64,000 bases of DNA from Minisyncoccota bacterium (GTDB lineage: Bacteria; Patescibacteriota; Minisyncoccia; Phycocordibacterales; UBA9973): positions 159,107 to 223,106 of the forward strand of contig JBAZSZ010000001.1 in the NCBI GenBank assembly GCA_041662205.1, in the 5' to 3' direction. Position numbers and translations under genes: made by a program. This document shows, in pieces, positions 6,582 to 49,374 of this stretch (position 1 is its first letter; every line of letters starts with the position of its first letter). Below the pieces are notes generated by a model that saw only the letters and a program-made list of their open reading frames with translations, had not been told where the DNA came from and made no database searches.

Positions 6582-6777
6582 CTGACAAAGATTACGGGGA
6601 ACGCTTCGCGTGTAAAGTTTACGTGGTCACAAGTTACTAAATTTTTTATTTCTTAAAATTATAAAAAATGTAAGTACTTGCTGACCCCGGCTCGGCTATT
6701 TTTCTTCTGAAAAATTATGCCTGCGCCTTCACAAACGGCTCGCAAATAAAGCAGTTTATTTGGCTTTGCGCCGTTTG

Positions 6778-6849
6778 TGACCCTACGCGGAATCGAACCG
6801 CGATTCCATCCTTGAGAAGGATGTGTCCTAACCGTTAGACGATAGGGCC
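6778..6849 (-). tRNA. tRNA-Glu (anticodon CUC)
   Basis: Manual cloverleaf on the minus strand: acceptor GGCCCTA/TAGGGTC, anticodon loop TTCTCAA, T-arm CGCGG-TTCGATT-CCGCG. 72 nt, no CCA encoded. Confidence 0.85.
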
Positions 6850-19158: not shown

Positions 19159-19228
19159 CGAAACCCCTCAAAAGTTATGTCCTAAAAAGTTTGCTGAAGT
19201 TAAGATATTTTGTTATAGTTTTTTTATT

Positions 19229-19244
19229 GAGCGTGTAGTTCAGT
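19229..19244 (+). pseudogene. 16-nt 5' fragment of a tRNA-Ile-like gene (GAGCGTGTAGTTCAGT)
   Basis: Identical to the first 16 nt of the 5' half at 19284. Confidence 0.4.
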
Positions 19245-19283
19245 ATAGGATGCTACGGGGATGATGTTAAAAAAATAATATAT

Positions 19284-19318
19284 GAGCGTGTAGTTCAGTG
19301 GTAGAACGCTGTCCTGAT
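19284..19318 (+). pseudogene. 5' half (acceptor through anticodon loop) of a second tRNA-Ile-like gene
   Basis: GAGCGTG-TA-GTTCAGTGGTAGAAC-G-CTGTC-CTGATA. Positions 8-37 are identical to the intact tRNA-Ile. Its acceptor strand pairs with the 3' fragment at 19485-19519. Confidence 0.5.
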
Positions 19319-19366
19319 ATAACGAATACAATATAAACGGTTCGCTCGCCGATTATAAAAACAAAT

Positions 19367-19438
19367 GTGTCTGTAGTTCAGTGGTAGAACGCTGTCCTGA
19401 TAAGACAGAGGTCGAAGGTCCGATTCCTTCCAGACACA
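19367..19438 (+). tRNA. tRNA-Ile (anticodon GAU)
   Basis: Complete cloverleaf: acceptor GTGTCTG/CAGACAC, anticodon loop CTGATAA, T-arm GAAGG-TCCGATT-CCTTC. 72 nt, no CCA encoded. Confidence 0.85.
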
Positions 19439-19484
19439 CATGAAATACATTTATTTTTTACATACAGCTCACTGCCGTTTATAA

Positions 19485-19519
19485 GACAGAGGTCGATGGT
19501 CTGATTCCATCCACGCTCA
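19485..19519 (+). pseudogene. 3' half (anticodon-stem 3' strand through acceptor) of the second tRNA-Ile-like gene
   Basis: GACAG-AGGTC-GATGG-TCTGATT-CCATC-CACGCTC-A. Its acceptor strand is complementary to the GAGCGTG of the upstream 5' fragments. The T-stem differs from the intact gene by compensatory changes. Confidence 0.5.
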
Positions 19520-19593
19520 CTTGTATAAATTTCGGAGTTACTTTTGAAATAAAAAAGGGTGAAATTTTATCAAAAATATGGTATAATGAATGT

Positions 19594-20613
19594 ATGTTAA
19601 AGATAGAACTAATTAAAAAAATTGAAGAAAAACGAGGTTCCAAAGTTATTTCTTATATTACTAGCGATAGGCAAGGCCCTGTTGGTGCTAGGGTAGCAAT
19701 GGATATTATTCCTATTATTAGTGAACAACTTCGTAAAATTGGAAAGGTAAATAAAATCGATCTTTTCCTTTATACGGCGGGGGGAGATACGATGGTTCCT
19801 TGGCGTTTAGTTTCTATGATTCGTGAATATTGTGATACTTTTTCTGTGCTTGTGCCTTATAAGGCCCATAGTGCAGGAACAATGATTGCTCTAGGCGCAG
19901 ATGAAATATTGATGAGCGACTTGTCAGAAATTTCTCCTATTGATCCTTCTACAGCAAATGTCTTTAACCCCACAGATCCAGCTAATCCACAAAATAAAAT
20001 TCCTATCTCAGTGGAAGATGTTATTGCTTATTTTGATTTAGCAAAAAATAAATTTGGAATAAAGAGCGATGAAGACTTAACAAAAGTTTTTAATAAATTT
20101 GTTGAATCAAATCCACAAATTCATCCTCTCGCTCTTGGCAACGTAAATCGTATACACAATCTTATTCGTTTGATTGCAAAGCGTTTACTCAAGAGTCACA
20201 AAGATCCAATGAAAGAAGAGCAGATAGAAAAAGTTGTTGAATTTTTTACTGAAAAACTTTATTCGCACACATATTTTATTGGAAGGAAAGAAGCCAAAGA
20301 AGAATTGGGAGTTAAATCAGTTACAGAAGCAGACGCTGCACTTTCAGACCTCATGTCTCAACTTTACTTTGAATATGTTAAAGAAATGGAATTACAGAAC
20401 AACGTTTGGAATCCTCAAAACGAGCTTGGAGCAAACGCAAGTCAAAATGTAAAAGAATACAAAGTAGCTTTTGTAGAAAGTGCCATTCTTTCAAAAGTAT
20501 ATCAATTAACAATGGAATTCAAGCGCCACCAGGGTATAGTAGCTCAACCCAACGGCGCGCAAGTATCTCAAGAACAAGTCGCAATTAGAATAGTGGAACA
20601 AGGGTGGAAATAA
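19594..20613 (+). CDS. ClpP-fold serine protease of the SDH/S49-like family
   Basis: The pattern ITSDRQGPVG...LFLYTAGGD...YKAHSAGTMIALGADEILM resembles Clp/SppA-class serine proteases. First gene of an operon that is tightly spaced with mod/res. Confidence 0.5.
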   Translation: MLKIELIKKIEEKRGSKVISYITSDRQGPVGARVAMDIIPIISEQLRKIGKVNKIDLFLYTAGGDTMVPWRLVSMIREYCDTFSVLVPYKAHSAGTMIALGADEILMSDLSEISPIDPSTANVFNPTDPANPQNKIPISVEDVIAYFDLAKNKFGIKSDEDLTKVFNKFVESNPQIHPLALGNVNRIHNLIRLIAKRLLKSHKDPMKEEQIEKVVEFFTEKLYSHTYFIGRKEAKEELGVKSVTEADAALSDLMSQLYFEYVKEMELQNNVWNPQNELGANASQNVKEYKVAFVESAILSKVYQLTMEFKRHQGIVAQPNGAQVSQEQVAIRIVEQGWK

Positions 20614-20614
20614 A

Positions 20615-21007
20615 ATGGAAAAAAATATTTATATTGATTTTACTCATATTTGCGAAAATGTTATCGATGCTAAAAATGGGAACTTAAGTCTCATAAACAT
20701 TTTTAACCAAATAACCTCATCCAATTTTCCAGCAGTTTATTCGCAAATGTATGTTGTAGTTGGTGGACGCGGAATAAAAGGAGAGTATCCAGTAAGTATA
20801 AAAATTGAAAACAAAACTACCGGCAAAATTGTTGTTCGTGAACAGGTACTACCAAATAAGATTATAATTCCCGAAGATACAGGAGAAGGGAGACTTTATA
20901 TTAAATTTTCTCCCTTAATTTTAGAGACAGAAGGAAAATATGAAATTATGCTTTCCATAGAAGGAGAATCGAAAAACTTATTTTTTGATGTAAAATCTTC
21001 TAAATAA
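20615..21007 (+). CDS. Hypothetical protein (130 aa)
   Basis: Begins 2 nt after the preceding stop; beta-rich, no recognisable motif. Confidence 0.4.
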   Translation: MEKNIYIDFTHICENVIDAKNGNLSLINIFNQITSSNFPAVYSQMYVVVGGRGIKGEYPVSIKIENKTTGKIVVREQVLPNKIIIPEDTGEGRLYIKFSPLILETEGKYEIMLSIEGESKNLFFDVKSSK

Positions 21008-21011
21008 AGTT

Positions 21012-21605
21012 ATGTCCGAACAGAATACACAAATTGAAGAGGTAGAGAGTAGTCGTATAAAAACAGGAACCCAGAAAGGTACAGTGGAAGAGACCAAGGT
21101 TAATTTTAATCAGGATGAAGCTTGGACGCTTCTAGATAATAGAACAAAAAACTTAGAAAAAACTGCCGATAGGGTAGAAAAAAGAATAGATAAAGTAGAA
21201 GATAAAATAAGGGACTCAAATCTTAACACCATTGAAACCCTGGCTATTTTTGTAGCTCTTTTTACTTTTGTTTCCATAGAATTTCAAATTTTCCGATCAT
21301 TTTCTTCATGGGAAGCAGCTGCGAGTTTATCCTTAATTTTATTAGGCACCCTAACATTTTTTGTTGTGTTGATAGTTTCTCTTATCGACAAAAAATTTAA
21401 CCCCTCTATGTTTTTGAAATGTATGATTGGATTAACAATATTGGGTGGTGTTGCTCTTTTTGGACAATCAAAAATAATTGATTCTGATTATATTTTAAAG
21501 CAAGAGTTAGAAGAAAATTTTTACACCCAACACCAAACTGATAGTCAGTGGACTGATTTTAAAACCTGTATATGGTATAGAGGATTGAATAATTGTTTGA
21601 AATAA
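21012..21605 (+). CDS. Hypothetical coiled-coil protein with 2-3 C-terminal TM helices
   Basis: Begins 5 nt after the preceding stop; N-terminal coiled coil followed by hydrophobic helices. Confidence 0.4.
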   Translation: MSEQNTQIEEVESSRIKTGTQKGTVEETKVNFNQDEAWTLLDNRTKNLEKTADRVEKRIDKVEDKIRDSNLNTIETLAIFVALFTFVSIEFQIFRSFSSWEAAASLSLILLGTLTFFVVLIVSLIDKKFNPSMFLKCMIGLTILGGVALFGQSKIIDSDYILKQELEENFYTQHQTDSQWTDFKTCIWYRGLNNCLK

Positions 21606-21609
21606 TGAC

Positions 21610-23151
21610 ATGCCATCTTTAAACTGGATTGGAAAAGATAAGATTGAGAATCACGACAAAGATGTCGCTTTTCGACTTTTAAAAAAGAATGAGAAGTTGT
21701 CGCTAGGAAAAAGTAGTGAGAATTTGATTGTGGAAGGAGATAACCTCGAGGCATTAAAAGCGTTGATGCCTCATTATGCCGGAAAAGTAAAATGTATTTA
21801 CATTGATCCTCCTTACAACACTGGTAATGAGGGGTGGGTTTATAATGACAAAGTGAATTCTCCTAAAATAAAGGAATGGCTAGGGAGAGCGGTGGGACCA
21901 GAAGGAGAGGATTTAACTCGGCACGATAAATGGCTTTGTATGATGTATCCACGTTTGAAATTATTACGCGACCTACTTCGAGACGATGGTGTGATTTTTA
22001 TTTCCATAGATGATAATGAGCAACATAATCTTAGATTTATCATGGATGAGCTTTTTGGAGAAGAAAATTTTGTGACAAACATTATTTGGCAAAAATCCTT
22101 CTCCCCTATTAATTTAAGGAAAAATTTTTCTAGTAATCATGACTTCATAATCGTATATGCAAGGAATAGAGTTAATTTGAATTTAAATTTATTAGTTCGA
22201 GGAAAAGAAAACAATGAAAGATATAAAAATCTAGACAATGATCCGAGAGGTGCTTGGACATCAAGTGATTTAACTGTGGGACCAATAATTAGAGAAAAAC
22301 TTTATAAAGTTGTTTCTCCTAGTGGAAAAATATTTATTCCTCCGTCAGGACGATGTTGGGTTGTTACAAAAGAAAGATTTGAAGAGTATCAAAAAGAAAA
22401 AAGAATTTGGTGGGGAGAAAAAGGTGATAATATGCCTAGGCAAAAAAGATTTCTTTCGGAAGTGCAACAAGGTATTGTGCCCATGACTATATGGACACAT
22501 CAAGAAGTTGGGCATAACCAGGAAGCAAAGCAAGAGATAAAACAAATACTCAAACAAGAGGTTCCTTTTGAAACTCCCAAACCAACTCGTTTGCTTAAAA
22601 GAATTTTTCAACTTGCAACAAAAGAAAACGACCTAGTCATGGATTCTTTCGTTGGTTCTGGTACAACTGGACAAGCAGTTTTAGAGTTAAATAAAGAAGA
22701 TGGAGGCAATCGCAAGTTTATTTTAGTTGAGTTGGAAGAAAAAATTGCCCGTAAAATTACACAGGAAAGGGTACGTAGAGTAGCAGAGAAAATAGGTGGG
22801 GATTTTGAGTATGTAGCGCTGGGTGATGCACTTTTTGAAAGTTCTGGCGCAATTAATCCAAAAGTGAGTTTTAAAGACCTTGCTTCTTATATTTATTTCA
22901 CGGAAACCCACACCAACATTAATCCAAAGAAAATAAAAGGTAATTTTATTGGCGAATATAATGGACAGGAGTTTTACCTATTATTTAAAGACAAGGATAA
23001 AAACATTTTTAATAGGTCCACTCTTTCCAAGATAGGAAAATCAAAATTGTCTAAAATTGTATATGCAGACAAGTGTTTATTGGACCAAGACATACTTAAC
23101 AAGTGGGGGATCATTTTTAAACAAATTCCTTATTCAGTAAAAACATATTAG
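21610..23151 (+). CDS. mod: Type III restriction-modification methyltransferase (Mod, N6-adenine)
   Basis: DPPY motif (IYIDPPYNTGNEGW) and an FxGxG-like AdoMet region. Immediately followed by res. Confidence 0.85.
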   Translation: MPSLNWIGKDKIENHDKDVAFRLLKKNEKLSLGKSSENLIVEGDNLEALKALMPHYAGKVKCIYIDPPYNTGNEGWVYNDKVNSPKIKEWLGRAVGPEGEDLTRHDKWLCMMYPRLKLLRDLLRDDGVIFISIDDNEQHNLRFIMDELFGEENFVTNIIWQKSFSPINLRKNFSSNHDFIIVYARNRVNLNLNLLVRGKENNERYKNLDNDPRGAWTSSDLTVGPIIREKLYKVVSPSGKIFIPPSGRCWVVTKERFEEYQKEKRIWWGEKGDNMPRQKRFLSEVQQGIVPMTIWTHQEVGHNQEAKQEIKQILKQEVPFETPKPTRLLKRIFQLATKENDLVMDSFVGSGTTGQAVLELNKEDGGNRKFILVELEEKIARKITQERVRRVAEKIGGDFEYVALGDALFESSGAINPKVSFKDLASYIYFTETHTNINPKKIKGNFIGEYNGQEFYLLFKDKDKNIFNRSTLSKIGKSKLSKIVYADKCLLDQDILNKWGIIFKQIPYSVKTY

Positions 23152-23153
23152 TT

Positions 23154-25439
23154 ATGGAACTAAAACGATATCAAAAAGAGGTTATAGATAAGTTTGAGCT
23201 ATTTTTGAAAACGGCAAAATCAATACCGAATAAAAATCAGGCAGCCGCTTTTGCTTTCATGTCTTTAACAAAGGTGCCCTACAAAGAACTCCCAGATGAG
23301 CTCGCTGAGACACCTTTTCTCTGTGTGCAAGTCCCGACAGGAGGCGGAAAAACTTTCATTGCTTCACATATTATAGACAGTGCATATACTCATTTCGAAA
23401 AAACTCAACAAAAGAACGATACGGGCTTAGTTTTGTGGCTTGTGCCTAGCGATGCCATAAGAACTCAGACGCTTCAAAAATTACGAGACAAAAATGATCC
23501 AGTTCGTGAAGTGCTCGATGAACGCTTTAATAATAAAGTTGTAGTTTTAGATATTTTAGAAGCTAGAAGTATTAAGAAAAGTGATATAAGCGAAAACATA
23601 ACTATTGTTGTGGCTACTTTTGCTTCATTTAAAAGGGAAGAAACAGAAGGATTAAAAGTTTTTCAAAATAATGGAGCTTTAATGACTCACTTTGAGAATC
23701 AAACTGAAGATGAAAATCAAAAATATTCTGTGATAGAGGTTATAAAAAAAAATACTCCGTTAGTTATCGTCGACGAAGGGCACAATGCACAAACAAGCCT
23801 TTCCCTCGATATGTTTAAGGATTTAAATCCCTGTATGATTGTAGAATTTACCGCGACACCAAGAAGCTTGAGTAATGTTTTTGTTTCTGTTCCAGCGACT
23901 GAGTTGAAAATGGAGCACATGATTAAGATGCCTATTTTCCTAGAAACCAAGACGATTTGGCAAGATGCTATAAAATTAGCTTATGAAAAAAGGAACGAGT
24001 TAGAAAAAATTTCCCAAAAGCAAACGAAAGATTCCTATATTCGCCCTATTTTGCTTATCCAGGCCGAACAAGAAATTGAATCTCCCACCAGGATATATGT
24101 AGGTAAAGTTCTTGAATATCTTGAACAAGAATTAAAGATTGATCGTAATGAGATAGCTATTCGAACCGGGAAGCAGAATGAAATTGAAAATAAAAACCTT
24201 TTTAGCTTAGAAGTAAAGATTAGATATATCATAACAGTGGATGCATTAAAAGAAGGCTGGGACTGTTCATTTGCATATGTTCTTGCATCAGTGAAGAACC
24301 TTGGGGCTCCCGTTGCTGTAAAGCAATTAATTGGTCGTATACTCCGGTCTCCCTATGCGATCGAACATAAATTTAAAGAGTTCAATCAGGCCTATGTATA
24401 TGCTAGCGCTCCCAATTTTCAAGATGCTGCAAGGTTAGTTATAGATGGTTTGAAAGCAAATGGATACGATATAGATCCAACTAATTTAAATAAAAAAACT
24501 ATTAATACTATAAAAACTGAATATTCCAGAAATAAAAAAGGTGAAGTGAAGCTGCCGTTAATAGCTTTTAATGCCGAAGGCGAGATAAGAGAGCTAGATT
24601 ATAGCGCCGACTTGATTGGAGATGTCTCTATTCTTAATAAGATAAATCCTACAATTGACCTGAGTGGGAGGGAAGATACAGGGGTCGCTCTGATTGATAT
24701 TAATACGAAAGGAGATTTGGTTCGGGAGCAAGCAGAAAATTCATATTCAACAAACGCAGACGTAGAATTTTCCATAGAACAATTAGTTGAATGGTTATTA
24801 AAAAAAATTAGTCGGTCTTTTCTCTCTCTTACAGACATAGAAGAATTTATAGTTAAAGCCGTGAAGTTGCTGATTCCCAAAAAGATTTCTATAAATAATG
24901 CTAACCGAAAACGCTACCTTTTGCTCGAAAGAATCAATGAACTAGTTGATGGGATAGTTAATGAACATACCTATAAACAATTTTTTCAATTTTTAAAAAG
25001 CAAACATATTCTTACGAATTCTAAAGTTGCGTGGGAGGTCGGTAATAAAATTGAATATAATCAAATTATTTCAGGGATAATCTACAATAAACATATTTTT
25101 ACAGGTGTGGGACAGATGAACACTGAAGAACAAAAACTTGCTGATGTAATTAATAGTATCGAATCTGTGGAATGGTGGTTGCGAAATCCTGAACAAAACG
25201 GTTTTTATATACAAGGATGGATGGGTAATAAATTTCGTCCCGATTTTATCGTAAAAACACAAAAAGGAAATTACTTTGTTCTCGAGTATAAAGGTGATCA
25301 ATTGGTGACAAATGATGACAGTAAATACAAAAAAGAATTAGGAGATGTATGGACAAAAATTGCAGGAGAAAAATATCATTTTGAAATGGTGGAAAAAAAT
25401 GAAATAAATTCAATAGCTCAGTTGATTTTAAAAAATTAG
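23154..25439 (+). CDS. res: Type III restriction endonuclease Res subunit (SF2 helicase plus C-terminal PD-(D/E)xK domain)
   Basis: Walker A (VPTGGGKTF), DEGH box (VIVDEGHNAQ) and a C-terminal EYKGD nuclease motif. Begins 3 nt after mod. Confidence 0.85.
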   Translation: MELKRYQKEVIDKFELFLKTAKSIPNKNQAAAFAFMSLTKVPYKELPDELAETPFLCVQVPTGGGKTFIASHIIDSAYTHFEKTQQKNDTGLVLWLVPSDAIRTQTLQKLRDKNDPVREVLDERFNNKVVVLDILEARSIKKSDISENITIVVATFASFKREETEGLKVFQNNGALMTHFENQTEDENQKYSVIEVIKKNTPLVIVDEGHNAQTSLSLDMFKDLNPCMIVEFTATPRSLSNVFVSVPATELKMEHMIKMPIFLETKTIWQDAIKLAYEKRNELEKISQKQTKDSYIRPILLIQAEQEIESPTRIYVGKVLEYLEQELKIDRNEIAIRTGKQNEIENKNLFSLEVKIRYIITVDALKEGWDCSFAYVLASVKNLGAPVAVKQLIGRILRSPYAIEHKFKEFNQAYVYASAPNFQDAARLVIDGLKANGYDIDPTNLNKKTINTIKTEYSRNKKGEVKLPLIAFNAEGEIRELDYSADLIGDVSILNKINPTIDLSGREDTGVALIDINTKGDLVREQAENSYSTNADVEFSIEQLVEWLLKKISRSFLSLTDIEEFIVKAVKLLIPKKISINNANRKRYLLLERINELVDGIVNEHTYKQFFQFLKSKHILTNSKVAWEVGNKIEYNQIISGIIYNKHIFTGVGQMNTEEQKLADVINSIESVEWWLRNPEQNGFYIQGWMGNKFRPDFIVKTQKGNYFVLEYKGDQLVTNDDSKYKKELGDVWTKIAGEKYHFEMVEKNEINSIAQLILKN

Positions 25440-25492
25440 AAAAAGTATATTTGCGAGAAGCTTTTAGCGGGGAATTGGTGTAAAATATAAAT

Positions 25493-26434
25493 ATGTCACT
25501 TTTTAAAAAACAAAATGGAAATATAAGCCTAGTAAAAGAAAAGCTTTTTGCATTAGAAAAAGAGTTACAAAGCATTACGGAACATAATATAAAGGAGATA
25601 TTTGGGTTAGAATTTGTTGCGACTGAATTTCAGCATAATGGTTTACGTATAGATACTTTGGCGTATGATTCTAGCTTGAATACTTTTGTAGTTATTGAAT
25701 ACAAGAGGGAAAAGAGCTTTAGTGTGATTGATCAGGGTTTTGCTTATCTTTCGCTTATTTTAAACAATCAAGCAGAATTTGTTTTGGAGTTTAATAAAAA
25801 ATTTCAAGAGAAAAAAGGGAAAGCAGATTTCGATTGGTCTCAAATGAGAGTCCTGTTTTTGACTAGATCGTTTACAGTTCACCAATTGGAAGCAATTAAC
25901 TTTAGGGATTTACCTATTGAGTTATGGGAAGTGACCCGTTATGAAGGGGATCTTATTCAGTATTCACAAACCAAGCGTTCCGGAGCCAAGGCCTCTATCG
26001 AGACCCTCGGTATTTCAAATAGCGAAGTGCGTAAAATTTCAAAAGAGGTAAGAACTTATTCTGAAGAGGAATATTTAAACAATAAGCCAAATGGAAATGG
26101 TAGAAAGTTCTATGAAAAAATTAAAGAAAAAGTCGCAGTTATTGATTCTAATATTGTTATAAACCCAACTAAATCCTATATATCATTTCAGTGGCCAAAT
26201 AATTGGCGCAATATATTTTATTGTCACGTATCGGGTAACAAAATTCGTTTAGACTTTACAAGGAGTGAACCTAAGGATTTCAAAGATCCTGAAAAGAAAG
26301 TTTTTTACAACGAAAGTAGTATGAAATACTACAAACAGCACATATCATCTATCGAGATAAATAATGAAAAAGAACTTGAGTACTCAGTTTATATAATCCA
26401 ACAAGCCTACGAAAGATTCCAAAAAGAAAACTAA
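25493..26434 (+). CDS. NucS/DUF91-like PD-(D/E)xK nuclease-domain protein
   Basis: N-terminal GLRIDTLAYD...FVVIEYKREK is a RecB/NucS-like D...ExK motif; the C-terminal half is of unknown function. Confidence 0.5.
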   Translation: MSLFKKQNGNISLVKEKLFALEKELQSITEHNIKEIFGLEFVATEFQHNGLRIDTLAYDSSLNTFVVIEYKREKSFSVIDQGFAYLSLILNNQAEFVLEFNKKFQEKKGKADFDWSQMRVLFLTRSFTVHQLEAINFRDLPIELWEVTRYEGDLIQYSQTKRSGAKASIETLGISNSEVRKISKEVRTYSEEEYLNNKPNGNGRKFYEKIKEKVAVIDSNIVINPTKSYISFQWPNNWRNIFYCHVSGNKIRLDFTRSEPKDFKDPEKKVFYNESSMKYYKQHISSIEINNEKELEYSVYIIQQAYERFQKEN

Positions 26435-30442: not shown

Positions 30443-30475
30443 GTAATTATTATTTGAAAATTTAAAATAGTTCTT

Positions 30476-30548
30476 GAGAAATGCCTTGCGCAGGCCGACT
30501 GGGCCGAGCAGAGCAAAAATTCAGCAGAATTTTATGTGTGCATTTCGA
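30476..30548. repeat. Divergent copy of the GC-rich element (R3) between atpE and atpF
   Basis: The core gccttgcgcaggccgactgggccgagcag resembles R2's gccttgcgcaggctgacgagccgagcag. Flanked by the inverted repeat gaaatgc/gcatttc. Confidence 0.45.
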
Positions 30549-30581
30549 GAGAAGCTATTTTAAATTTTCAAAAATTACCAC

Positions 30582-45063: not shown

Positions 45064-45228
45064 ATGTATATGTCACAAGATAGACTTATAAAACTTGGCT
45101 GTGGGACTTGCAAACGTATAAATTACTGGTCCAGCAAGAACAAAAAACTCGTCACTAAAAAAATCGAGCTCAAAAAGTATTGCAAATGGTGCCGAAAGCA
45201 GACTAAGCATAAAGAAGTAAAAAAGTAG
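45064..45228 (+). CDS. rpmG: Ribosomal protein L33, not in the ORF track
   Basis: The translation ...IKLGCGTCKRINYWSSKNKK...IELKKYCKWCRKQTKHKEVKK matches the L33 zinc-ribbon pattern; a terminator follows. Confidence 0.8.
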   Translation: MYMSQDRLIKLGCGTCKRINYWSSKNKKLVTKKIELKKYCKWCRKQTKHKEVKK

Positions 45229-45256
45229 ATTTTATCTGTTTTTCTGCTATACTAAA

Positions 45257-45279
45257 GACGGCCGTTGGTCGTTTTTTTG
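45257..45279 (+). terminator. Rho-independent terminator after rpmG
   Basis: acggcc-gtt-ggtcgt hairpin followed by TTTTTTT. Confidence 0.5.
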
Positions 45280-45292
45280 TTAAGTATTATAA

Positions 45293-45363
45293 GGGCGATT
45301 AGTTTAGTGGTAGAACGAAGGCCTCCAAATCCTTTGGCGGGGGTTCGATTCCCTCATCGCCCG
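45293..45363 (+). tRNA. tRNA-Trp (anticodon CCA)
   Basis: Cloverleaf: acceptor GGGCGAT/ATCGCCC, anticodon loop CTCCAAA, T-arm GGGGG-TTCGATT-CCCTC. 71 nt. Confidence 0.85.
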
Positions 45364-45473
45364 CAGGACGATAGCAAGCAAACTGCTTTGCTTGTGTGAG
45401 GGAAGCGAAAAGCTTTTCATAATTCAGCAAAGCTGAATTGAAAAGGTATGCTGTTTCTGTAAGGAAAGATTAC
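45364..45473 (+). other. About 110-nt hairpin-rich insert following tRNA-Trp, homologous to the insert after tRNA-Leu
   Basis: Contains the caagcaaa-ctgc-tttgcttg and ttcagc-aaa-gctgaa hairpins. Roughly 60-70% identical (estimated by eye) to 49196-49281 in the tRNA-relative orientation. Confidence 0.45.
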
Positions 45474-45488
45474 CCCTCATCGCCCGCA
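45474..45488 (+). repeat. Duplicated 3' end of tRNA-Trp (ccctcatcgcccgca)
   Basis: Exact 15-nt copy of the tRNA T-stem 3' strand plus acceptor 3' strand, in direct orientation about 110 nt downstream. Confidence 0.6.
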
Positions 45489-45523
45489 AACGTTTTTGTT
45501 AAAAAGTAAATATATAAAAAAAT

Positions 45524-45898
45524 ATGATTGATGGTTTTAAATTAAATCCAGGAAAATTGCATGATAAAAACTTCGACAAAAAGACGGGTGCTTCTGTTGC
45601 CTATGAAGAAATGGAGCGGCTGCAAAAAATACTCAAAAAACTAGATGAGGAAATAGAATCTAGTGAAGAATTTATGATGAGATTAGAAAAACATGCAGAA
45701 GGTTTGCGACAACGATCTCCGCATTTGCCTCAATTGAAGGACATGGAAGTAGCCATTAGGAATGGACGAAAAGAGCTAGATCGTATGATAGCAGATAAAA
45801 ATATACTAGTAGAGGAAATAGAAAATTTGTTTGACGCCCATCGAACCTTTACCGAAGCATTGGAATCAATGGATGAAAATACTAATAAGGGAAATTAG
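45524..45898 (+). CDS. Hypothetical coiled-coil protein (124 aa)
   Basis: ORF with a plausible start; no recognisable motif. Confidence 0.4.
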   Translation: MIDGFKLNPGKLHDKNFDKKTGASVAYEEMERLQKILKKLDEEIESSEEFMMRLEKHAEGLRQRSPHLPQLKDMEVAIRNGRKELDRMIADKNILVEEIENLFDAHRTFTEALESMDENTNKGN

Positions 45899-49161: not shown

Positions 49162-49168
49162 TTTTTTA

Positions 49169-49195
49169 CTTACTCTGTGCCCAGGGAGAGAATCG
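49169..49195 (-). repeat. Duplicated 3' end of tRNA-Leu plus 9 nt of its 3' flank (27-nt direct repeat of 49282-49308)
   Basis: Exact copy of cttactctgtgcccagggagagaatcg, located just upstream of the murA start codon. Confidence 0.6.
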
Positions 49196-49281
49196 GCTAT
49201 TACATAGCCAGGTGATTTTCGGCTTCATTTTATTCAGCAACGAAAATCCTTTCGATTCCTCCACGTAAGCAAATAAGTTTG
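49196..49281 (-). other. About 86-nt insert between tRNA-Leu and its duplicated 3' end, homologous to the tRNA-Trp insert
   Basis: Hairpins GTAAGCAAA-CTTA-TTTGCTTAC and ggctat-tac-atagcc; the shared GTGGAGGAATCGAAAGGATTTTC block also appears in the Trp insert. Confidence 0.45.
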
Positions 49282-49290
49282 CTTACTCTG

Positions 49291-49374
49291 TGCCCAGGGA
49301 GAGAATCGAACTCTCATGATGTTGCCATCAATAGATTTTGAGTCTATCGCGTCTACCAATTCCGCCACCTGGGC
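49291..49374 (-). tRNA. tRNA-Leu (anticodon CAA), type II with a long variable arm
   Basis: Acceptor GCCCAGG/CCTGGGC, anticodon loop CTCAAAA, variable hairpin TGATGGCAACATCA, T-arm GAGAG-TTCGATT-CTCTC. 84 nt. Confidence 0.85.

Follow-up and report, generated by a model that had tools for sequence, protein, structure and literature searches.

Integrase-borne islands and prophages reportedly use tRNA genes as att sites, with the T-loop as one sublocation; the accounts of Reiter in 1989 and of Williams in 2002 are said to cover these sites. One integrase family is normally restricted to one or few tRNA species. The attC site of integrons is recognised by its shape, and in the attP(+) site of Vibrio phage CTX a folded stem imitates the dif duplex. 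Tricks with tRNA sequences are also known from retroelements: the primer-binding sites of retroviruses and LTR elements are complementary to the tRNA 3' part, and tRNA-derived SINEs show tRNA mimicry. The MITEs and small structured repeats of bacteria include REP/BIME, BOX, RUP, Correia and the Rickettsia palindromic elements (PMC3184786). For the Patescibacteria, one report (PMC13011429) describes group I introns in the tRNA anticodon loop, which are at least 200 nt long, give an Rfam intron match and are mostly without a homing endonuclease.

The locus studied here lies in a 64-kb stretch of a Minisyncoccota genome (64,000 nt, hereafter the window). ARAGORN called an intact tRNA-Trp(CCA) gene, and the Rfam tRNA model (RF00005) gave 65.9 bits at 45293-45363 (threshold 29). 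The gene is uninterrupted, and it is intact without the insert that follows. The exact 15-nt sequence CCCTCATCGCCCGCA has two occurrences in the window, both in direct orientation (45351-45365 and 45474-45488); 0 of 100 dinucleotide-preserving shuffles yielded two matches, and a chance origin of the repeat is ruled out by this result. A first-pass annotation had pointed out this direct copy of the tRNA 3' end, and the coordinates agree with its division into T-stem and acceptor 3' strands; the repeat span also takes in the discriminator and CA. The features of the locus are:

45293-45364, plus strand: tRNA-Trp(CCA), intact (ARAGORN call)
45351-45365 (exact), plus strand: repeat copy X1, the tRNA-Trp 3' part from T-loop C56 onward
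45366-45372, plus strand: anti-acceptor segment GGACGAT, complement of the acceptor 3' strand ATCGCCC (6/7 pairs)
45374-45395, plus strand: hairpin P2, 9 bp, GCAAGCAAA / TTTGCTTGT, CTGC loop
45398-45409, plus strand: anti-T segment GAGGG + AAGCGAA, Watson-Crick complement of the T-stem 3' strand CCCTC and the T-loop
45412-45446, plus strand: hairpin P3, outer stem GCTTTTC / GAAAAGG, inner hairpin AATTCAGC-AAA-GCTGAATT
45453-45467, plus strand: hairpin P4, conserved YGTAR loop (TGTAA)
45468-45488, plus strand: repeat copy X2, GATTAC followed by CCCTCATCGCCCGCA, exact at 45474-45488

When a 2-nt indel is allowed, the repeat reaches the GATT of the T-loop, 19 nt from 45347 (GATT-CCCTC... vs GATTACCCCTC...). 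The spacing between the repeat copies is 108 nt and hairpin-rich (z = -3.1 for the tRNA plus insert), in agreement with the insert of about 110 nt claimed at first. The insert matched a covariance model, built from 52 family members, with 98.4 bits over all 129 positions; this copy has no terminator spacer. The 108 nt after the tRNA-Trp are a complete family member, not debris. A full-length, high-scoring match to a conserved family whose hairpins covary means that the insert did not survive at random from some larger island. The segment had been taken for either a remnant or a miniature element: the former is contradicted by the full-length match, and the latter stands, with the orthologous sites mostly empty (see below).

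A second complete copy was found after the tRNA-Leu(CAA), and a degenerate variant after the tRNA-Glu(CTC). Their features are:

49290-49374, minus strand: tRNA-Leu(CAA) (ARAGORN, Rfam)
49308 down to 49278, minus strand: X1 of the tRNA-Leu element, the tRNA 3' part from C56 plus 12 nt of trailer
49196-49289, minus strand: element of family A after the tRNA-Leu (110.1 bits, all 129 model positions)
49286-49265, minus strand: P2 of the tRNA-Leu element
49262-49249, minus strand: anti-T segment GGAGG-AATCGAAAG, of the tRNA-Trp type
49248-49214, minus strand: P3 of the tRNA-Leu element
49209-49195, minus strand: P4 of the tRNA-Leu element
49165-49195, minus strand: X2 of the tRNA-Leu element, ending 4 nt ahead of the murA ATG (49161)
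6640-6777, minus strand: degenerate variant after the tRNA-Glu(CTC) (6777-6849), 16.7 bits, E ~0.009

The tRNA-Leu element has neither a spacer nor an anti-acceptor segment, and its direct repeat is 31 nt long with 97% identity (49165-49195 vs 49278-49308). An alignment of the Trp and Leu inserts had been proposed; the two are homologous, as a 35-nt core pattern gave 2 matches in the window with 0 expected. The tRNA-Glu variant combines a P2-like hairpin with family-B-like modules, while its arms are unmatched and its X2 is decayed. Some form of the element is thus present at three of the four tRNAs of the window. A hairpin of a shorter type, family C, is located at 30458-30567; this family is also mobile, being filled in the window and in locus L052 and empty in L048. 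The tRNA-Ile of the window bears classic partial-tRNA scars, which adjoin a restriction-modification island.

Relatives were retrieved with MurA, whose gene adjoins the tRNA-Leu, and 80 species-level relatives were obtained, all of them Candidatus Nomurabacteria/Paceibacterota MAGs; the host itself belongs to this CPR group. The gene order around the tRNA-Trp and the tRNA-Leu is conserved among them; the inserts are not. Empty sites, which the first-pass annotation had advised looking for, were found in 37/48 related species for the tRNA-Trp and in 60/65 for the tRNA-Leu. Since the same sites are mostly empty in related species, the element has been gained and lost. These orthologous empty sites also bear out an att-type duplication left by an element at the tRNA 3' end. 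The empty junctions are precise; for example, the tRNA-Leu of L002, L004 and L011 ends 5-12 nt before the murA ATG. Both elements are present in L001 (91% MurA identity), and neither is present in L002 (89% MurA identity).

It had also been claimed that a conserved order of rpmG, tRNA-Trp, secE and nusG is broken at this point. This could not be upheld: the gene after the empty tRNA-Trp sites of relatives is Vut_1/YhhQ (L016, L031) or another one, and never secE/nusG. As secE/nusG never follows an empty-site tRNA-Trp, and as the scan of 61 window ORFs detected no NusG, these genes would lie elsewhere regardless of the insert. The 124-aa gene downstream had been read as a sign of rearrangement exactly at the tRNA. 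It proved to be an orphan ORF outside the repeat pair, seen only in this window among ~200 loci; in L001 the tRNA-Trp element is directly followed by yhhQ.

One pattern scan of metagenome contigs yielded 120 loci, in which nhmmer detected 99 family-A copies. The total is about 110 copies, which are dispersed and show presence/absence polymorphism. Every metagenome copy with enough flank follows immediately on the 3' side of a tRNA gene and shares its strand. The neighbouring tRNAs represent at least 23 anticodons and 12 amino acids (Trp, Glu, Arg, Gly, Pro, Lys, Leu, Ile, Gln, Cys, His and Tyr), and in element-rich contigs many tRNAs bear a copy. Two body types were recognised: family A, which is the type of the window, and family B, which has the common layout with different hairpins. 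The element is non-coding and about 95-130 nt in size. Its layout begins on the 5' side with the tRNA (X1), an optional locus-specific bidirectional terminator hairpin and the complement of the trailer and acceptor 3' strand. In the middle are AGC, P2 (9 bp, CUNC loop), GCGU, the complement of the T-stem 3' strand, AAUCGAA (the T-loop complement) and AG. The 3' side is composed of P3, ACCUG, P4 (YGURR loop), CGAU, an optional 14-nt mini-hairpin, U, and X2 (T-stem and acceptor 3' strands).

The three hairpins of the body are supported by covariation. Pairing holds in 96.1% of the cells of P2, P3 and P4, against 75.5% in shuffles; compensatory changes have altered both sides in 17 of the 22 pairs, and the covariation score is 0.553, compared with 0.153 for shuffled alignments and at most 0.078 with slid partners. 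Such pair-restoring changes are predicted for a folded strand, not for a duplex protein site, and they are compatible with RNA and single-stranded DNA alike. On the tRNA-sense strand, G-T pairs outnumber A-C pairs by 16 to 6. The hairpin tips frequently carry GNA triloops closed by C-G (GCGAAGC, GCGTAGC, Y-GTA-R), and such triloops resemble the classic stable DNA mini-hairpin. The strand asymmetry and the triloops are indirect hints of a single-stranded folded intermediate.

The element does not correspond to an RNA family in Rfam: at gathering thresholds only tRNA was matched in the window and five loci, and at E values up to 10 only tRNA, with no Intron_gpI, was matched in 45200-45560. A group I intron can be ruled out, as the tRNA is uninterrupted and no Rfam intron match was obtained. 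Hammerhead, twister and HDV-like cores were sought by eye in families A and B, with nothing convincing. Pattern scans of IMG/VR viral contigs gave chance coding matches or nothing, and no copy of the element, so that a phage origin was rejected. Full-text literature searches brought up no description of the element, and the family is apparently undescribed.

The two segments complementary to the tRNA, together a bipartite guide, are matched to the local gene. The anti-acceptor segment makes 6.4/7 pairs with the local tRNA vs 3.0 with other tRNAs (perfect in 35 of 52 copies), and the anti-T segment makes 4.74/5 pairs vs 3.2 (perfect in 46/62). The guide is split by P2 exactly at the boundary of acceptor stem and T-stem. 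At wobble or mismatch positions of the tRNA stems, it equals the complement of the 3' strand in 39/40 cases and the tRNA 5'-strand base in 1/40, which rules out a duplicated tRNA 5' half. The guide is a templated inverted copy of the tRNA 3' part. Because it includes the complement of the trailer, its template was the gene or the precursor, not the mature CCA-ended tRNA.

Where X1 and X2 diverge, the guide agreed with X1 18 times and with X2 once. The junction repeat X2 behaves passively, and complementarity to the live tRNA is maintained in the guide; selection could be responsible, as could homogenisation of the long palindrome that guide and X1 form across the spacer. Near-identical bodies were found on Arg, Glu, Gly, Pro and Lys tRNAs, each with different matched arms. 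These might be taken for fast retargeting; such a reading is tempered by L144 and L201, two versions of one locus with identical spacer and arms and different bodies, which show that the body module can be swapped or converted. For a guide to match more than 20 tRNAs, it must be copied from a template during insertion, or the palindrome must be corrected afterwards; no known recombinase mechanism explains such a match.

These structures might also be thought to serve the host. The element would then be a cis-acting 3' trailer of the tRNA transcript, such as a terminator, processing signal or stabiliser, in which a guide:X2 helix mimics the acceptor/T minihelix and RNase P/RNase Z release a downstream mRNA (e.g. 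murA). The strong covariation, with more G-U than A-C on the tRNA-sense strand, speaks for such a module; moreover, X2 preserves the native junction from tRNA to gene, many tRNAs of element-rich contigs are furnished with a copy, and the terminator spacer is missing where a co-oriented gene lies just downstream (tRNA-Leu followed by murA; tRNA-Trp followed by the 124-aa ORF or yhhQ). However, the empty sites of most related species imply that the element is not needed for expression of the tRNA or murA, and in most copies a strong terminator stands ahead of the element. The decay of X2 beside a preserved guide (18 to 1) also argues against a selected guide:X2 minihelix, and selfish repeats typically show such stacks of subtypes, degenerate copies and exchange of bodies. 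A host-beneficial RNA module is therefore rather improbable.

The junctions of the family have one fixed and one variable edge. The left edge of the X repeat falls at C56/G57 in 22 of the 44 copies scored, and 13 others have it immediately past the mini-hairpin; the right edge is most often 1 nt past the discriminator (+1) and extends as far as +34. Across the family the repeats are 15-60 nt long. Some copies are truncated on the 5' side and keep their 3' end beside X2 (L065, L040, L031, the second unit of L189, and those units of L132 that are without P2).

Fixed left and variable right edges would be expected from the staggered nicks of a SINE-like retroelement. According to this explanation, an RNA ending in the T-loop-like CGAU would anneal to a nicked tRNA gene, with target-primed reverse transcription as the next step, snap-back synthesis on the target strand would give the Watson-Crick inverted copy, and the reverse transcriptase would act in trans, e.g. 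from a DGR. The 5'-truncated copies and a guide that is a polymerase-type complement of the target also fit, and a DGR reverse transcriptase is present in these organisms (L205). The motifs of tyrosine and serine recombinases, of HUH enzymes and of reverse transcriptases were sought across 2.1 Mb of loci; that ordinary DGR, however, contained the only reverse transcriptase found. Group II introns are reported absent from Patescibacteria (PMC13011429). Moreover, simple snap-back gives no reason for the constant position at which P2 breaks the inverted copy, the terminator between tRNA and element in many copies argues against co-transcription, and the partial copies show no clear bias in the end that was lost. 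A SINE-like origin thus seems unlikely.

The copies may also be arranged in arrays. Perfect tandem units are present in L176, and stacks of differing subtypes in L132, L160, L189, L073 and L076. A gene-bearing stretch of 0.7-3 kb separates X1 from the element and its X2 in L057, L076 and several metagenome loci; islands of orphan genes occupy this position in L057, L076, L134, L120 and L167. The cargo consists of a pfkB kinase or of orphans without Pfam families, and the cargoes are mutually unrelated. Copies of the element can mark the far end of small orphan-gene islands anchored at a tRNA.

Such islands recall a larger integrase-borne island or prophage in the T-loop of the tRNA-Trp, which could have been mostly deleted so that only attL, attR and a random remnant of 108 nt were left. 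In its extent from the T-loop to the 3' end, the repeat is shaped like a tRNA att site, and the scars at the tRNA-Ile beside the restriction-modification island give a precedent in the same window. On the other hand, the 108 nt are matched in full by the family model (98 bits), as is the tRNA-Leu copy (110 bits), and about 100 copies of similar size with covarying hairpins and a tRNA-matched guide would not be expected from random remnants. No integrase adjoins any of the ~110 copies. This reading is largely excluded by the family-wide conservation, and we regard it as very improbable.

Of the 62 ORFs in the window with 90 aa or more, 61 were also searched for enzymes with Pfam, as were the cargo ORFs. 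These 61 ORFs encode no integrase, transposase, HUH enzyme or reverse transcriptase, nor does a gene of any of these kinds adjoin a copy of the element; the cargo ORFs contain no recombinase Pfam family. Apart from the DGR of L205, the 2.1-Mb motif scans revealed only two Xer-like tyrosine recombinases (L161 and L172), neither of them adjacent to an element. No intI was found in the Pfam scan of the window ORFs or in the 2.1-Mb motif scan.

A few copies depart from the common pattern. In L046, a family-B copy is inserted in the 3' end of topA, in the zinc-finger region, and duplicates the last ~25 codons. Because this copy sits in topA, the tRNA specificity, although strong, is not absolute. 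When L046 was compared with relatives, X2 was 82-86% identical, X1 72-75% and the flanks about 80%, an ambiguous answer to the question of which repeat copy is foreign; L037 and L065 point in the opposite direction. In L037 and L065, X2 carries a tRNA-Trp allele that differs from the resident tRNA, and in L037 the anti-acceptor segment does so too; these differing alleles could be fossils of an older tRNA sequence.

The same copies bear on the possibility that no dedicated enzyme takes part, in line with the recombinase searches above. The cassette of tRNA, element and X2, with or without cargo, would then pass from species to species by natural transformation, with the tRNA as homology anchor and X2 as a short second homology, through homology-facilitated illegitimate recombination; structure and palindromes would be side effects of template switching during replication. 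Genes for DprA, RmuC and a DinB-type polymerase lie in the window, the targets are highly conserved (tRNA genes, and the zinc-finger 3' end of topA in L046), and a foreign tRNA allele is found in X2 of L037 and L065. Yet the conserved covarying hairpins P2, P3 and P4, the fixed C56 edge, and the near-identical bodies with different matched arms on five tRNA types are all left unexplained, and enzyme-free spread is accordingly a poor candidate with a low probability.

We consider it somewhat probable (roughly 55%) that the tRNA-Trp feature is an intact copy of a Paceibacterota family of selfish hairpin elements of ~95-130 nt, which flank the 3' ends of tRNA genes and recombine as a folded single strand. 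The element would be a selfish, non-autonomous DNA, and its recombination site a folded single strand. The guide would pair with the tRNA-3' copy to form a duplex that mimics the T-arm/acceptor duplex of the tRNA gene. An enzyme supplied in trans would carry out the exchange at the T-loop of this gene, which would insert the element with a tRNA 3' part on either side, and would keep both the tRNA and its native junction to the downstream gene intact. Later, the guide would remain complementary to the live tRNA copy, and nothing would hold X2 back from decay; the element might be lost without a scar when X1 and X2 recombine or when slippage occurs between them. By analogy, we infer that this scheme is closest to phage CTX attP(+) and integron attC.

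Any mechanism has to account for three features: an insertion beside an intact tRNA that duplicates the tRNA 3' part from a fixed T-loop position, a templated inverted copy of this segment, and a constrained folded nucleic-acid structure. Recombination as a folded strand is ranked first because covariation replaces sequence conservation, because the arrays hold empty units and units carrying orphan genes, because stable GNA triloops of the DNA type are found at the hairpin tips, and because no enzyme is encoded in cis. Several points stand against it. The window Pfam scan and the 2.1-Mb motif scans tied no recombinase to the element, and the attC core boxes (RYYYAAC/GTTRRRY) are absent. Moreover, a fixed T-loop crossover predicts a native X2, yet the X2 allele of L037 and L065 differs, and the match of the guide to more than 20 tRNAs is left without an explanation. 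A tentative and rather doubtful further proposal is that the family forms a new class of mobile element, which recognises its target through nucleic acid, and that this tRNA-mimicking hairpin element reprograms itself: its bipartite guide might pair with the T-stem/T-loop and acceptor 3' strand of whichever tRNA gene adjoins it and be re-templated from this target at or after insertion, and the element might move as a folded DNA or RNA strand by means of an enzyme that is possibly host-encoded.

Despite tiny genomes in which few mobile-element enzymes can be recognised, the CPR/Patescibacteria differ widely in gene content. A compact structured element that settles at the 3' end of most tRNA species, spares the tRNA and lies at the edges of orphan-gene islands would be a candidate vehicle or landing pad for this variability. 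If the guide does direct insertion, the family would represent a natural nucleic-acid-programmed integration at tRNA genes, as well as a structured-nucleic-acid family new to Rfam. In addition, the second tRNA 3' ends and tRNA-like helices may confuse the annotation of tRNAs, islands and att sites in CPR genomes.

Comparison with the known systems showed both similarities and differences. The group I introns of Patescibacteria (PMC13011429) share the phylum, the association with tRNAs and the non-coding nature; the present element, in contrast, lies outside an intact tRNA and has no Rfam match. It resembles primer-binding sites and SINEs in its exact complement from the tRNA 3' end into the T-loop, in tRNA mimicry and in 5'-truncated copies; however, it is bacterial, has no linked reverse transcriptase and adjoins the tRNA gene itself, and its complement covers the gene trailer, not the CCA.

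The element is also similar to MITEs, since both are short, non-coding, multi-copy and hairpin-forming, have a sporadic presence/absence and contain no gene of their own. Its arms, however, differ per locus and are copied from the target, and the copies share no element-specific terminal inverted repeats. Its direct repeat is 15-60 nt with one fixed edge, in contrast to the 2-10 bp target-site duplication of MITEs; it is, as a rule, strictly specific for tRNA 3' ends in fixed orientation, and no parent insertion sequence is known.

With the tRNA att sites of integrases, the element shares a direct tRNA-3' repeat that starts from the T-loop, a tRNA that stays intact, and the piling up of partial tRNA copies and cargo islands at the same tRNA. 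Unlike integrase islands, it is about 100 nt long, codes for nothing and has no integrase nearby; it adds an inverted Watson-Crick copy of the target and covarying hairpins, and one element family serves at least 23 tRNA species.

Similarities with attC and CTX attP(+) include an imperfect inverted repeat with a structured tip, and conservation of the shape rather than the sequence. The folded stem of the element would likewise imitate its duplex chromosomal target. Arrays of units of ~60-140 nt, some empty and some with promoterless orphan genes, are a further likeness. However, the element lacks the R''/R' core consensus, and the scans above linked neither IntI nor Xer to it; the element ends, AATCGAA ... 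CGATT, are derived from the T-loop and are neither RYYYAAC ... GTTRRRY, as in attC, nor dif-like. The target is a tRNA gene instead of attI or dif, and the stem sequence varies with the tRNA. Taken together, a small non-autonomous insertion that leaves an att-like tRNA repeat is of a known kind, and its mechanism of insertion is one that we infer; what is new is the target-templated bipartite guide, the conserved three-hairpin body and the use of most tRNA species.

A family-B element, whose hairpins differ from those of the family-A type in the window, was found in a protein gene of the compared locus L046:

L046 7926-8187: family-B element in the 3' end of topA

Around this element, the final ~25 codons of topA are duplicated, including a 16-nt identity block (CAAAAACCATTCCCGA), and the C-terminus of the in-frame copy differs. 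A short complement of the topA target (GGTTTTTGTG) sits before the family-B body. The repeat and the target complement together indicate that the element design works on a protein gene too. The body can also change separately from the arms, the inverted copies complementary to the target. One tRNA-Glu locus, present in two metagenomes (L144, 8855-9040; L201, 2173-2338), has an identical 46-nt spacer and identical arms, whereas the P3/P4 hairpin bodies differ; the body is thus exchangeable or convertible independently of the arms.

A variant of the element and a further hairpin element are located in the window:

6640-6777, minus strand: element variant after tRNA-Glu(CTC)
30458-30567: family-C hairpin element of ~100 nt, flanked by ATP synthase genes a and b

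In the tRNA-Glu(CTC) variant, a hairpin resembling P2 (CAAATAAACTGCTTTATTTG) is nested within a longer stem, and there are also family-B-like modules which end in GTGAC. The arms of this variant do not match the tRNA, and the second copy of the tRNA 3' end survives only in decayed form. Family-C copies with 85% identity were found in L052 (7166-7270) and L064 (3778-3873); the L052 site is empty in L048, a close relative of L052. The sequence of the family-C outer arms varies by locus, with the complementarity staying perfect.

The tRNA-Ile(GAT) locus of the window (19228-19523) is a mosaic, in which an older tRNA-Ile is interrupted in the anticodon loop and an island-like block follows immediately:

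19228-19244: third tRNA-Ile fragment, a 5' piece of 17 nt
19284-19319: 5' half of the older tRNA-Ile
19367-19439: complete tRNA-Ile, inside the 161-nt segment splitting the older one
19481-19520: 3' half of the older tRNA-Ile
19594-26434: block encoding a ClpP-like SDH protease, a DUF6941 protein, a type III restriction-modification pair (N6_N4 methylase and ResIII helicase) and a DUF5655 protein

The acceptor strands of the separated halves (GAGCGTG and CACGCTC) are complementary. The same arrangement, in which the tRNA-Ile is followed by a ~41-nt spacer and a 3'-half copy, is present in the metagenomic locus L150.

Genes and arrays are also found at tRNA-Trp:

45524-45898: 124-aa ORF directly after X2, the distal repeat copy of the tRNA-Trp element
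L076 4250-5852: array at tRNA-Trp
L057 4362-7177: array at tRNA-Trp

For the 124-aa ORF, no match to a Pfam family exceeded the threshold, and ~200 related or metagenomic loci contain no homologue; in L001, L016 and L031, yhhQ directly follows the tRNA-Trp or the element. The ORF may be cargo acquired at a tRNA-Trp hotspot. The order in L076 is tRNA, B element, repeat, A element, repeat, pfkB kinase gene, partial repeat, A element and repeat. In L057, the tRNA is separated from the distal A element and X2 by 2.6 kb, in which there are two ORFs, of 449 and 133 aa, both orphans.

A diversity-generating retroelement lies 2.4 kb away from a family-A copy, and its reverse transcriptase was the only one detected in 2.1 Mb of loci:

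L205 732-2108: retroelement with a 329-aa reverse transcriptase (YADDF) and an Avd-like four-helix protein

In an alignment of the element, the hairpin tips are often GNA triloops with a C-G or T-A closing pair (e.g. L086, L175, L204, L158 and L117), in the forms GCGAAGC, GCGTAGC and Y-GTA-R. Window sites include:

45458-45462: GNA-triloop tip
49200-49204: GNA-triloop tip

The GNA triloop motif is known from unusually stable DNA mini-hairpins, and its presence at the hairpin tips is a hint of a folded strand that may consist of DNA.
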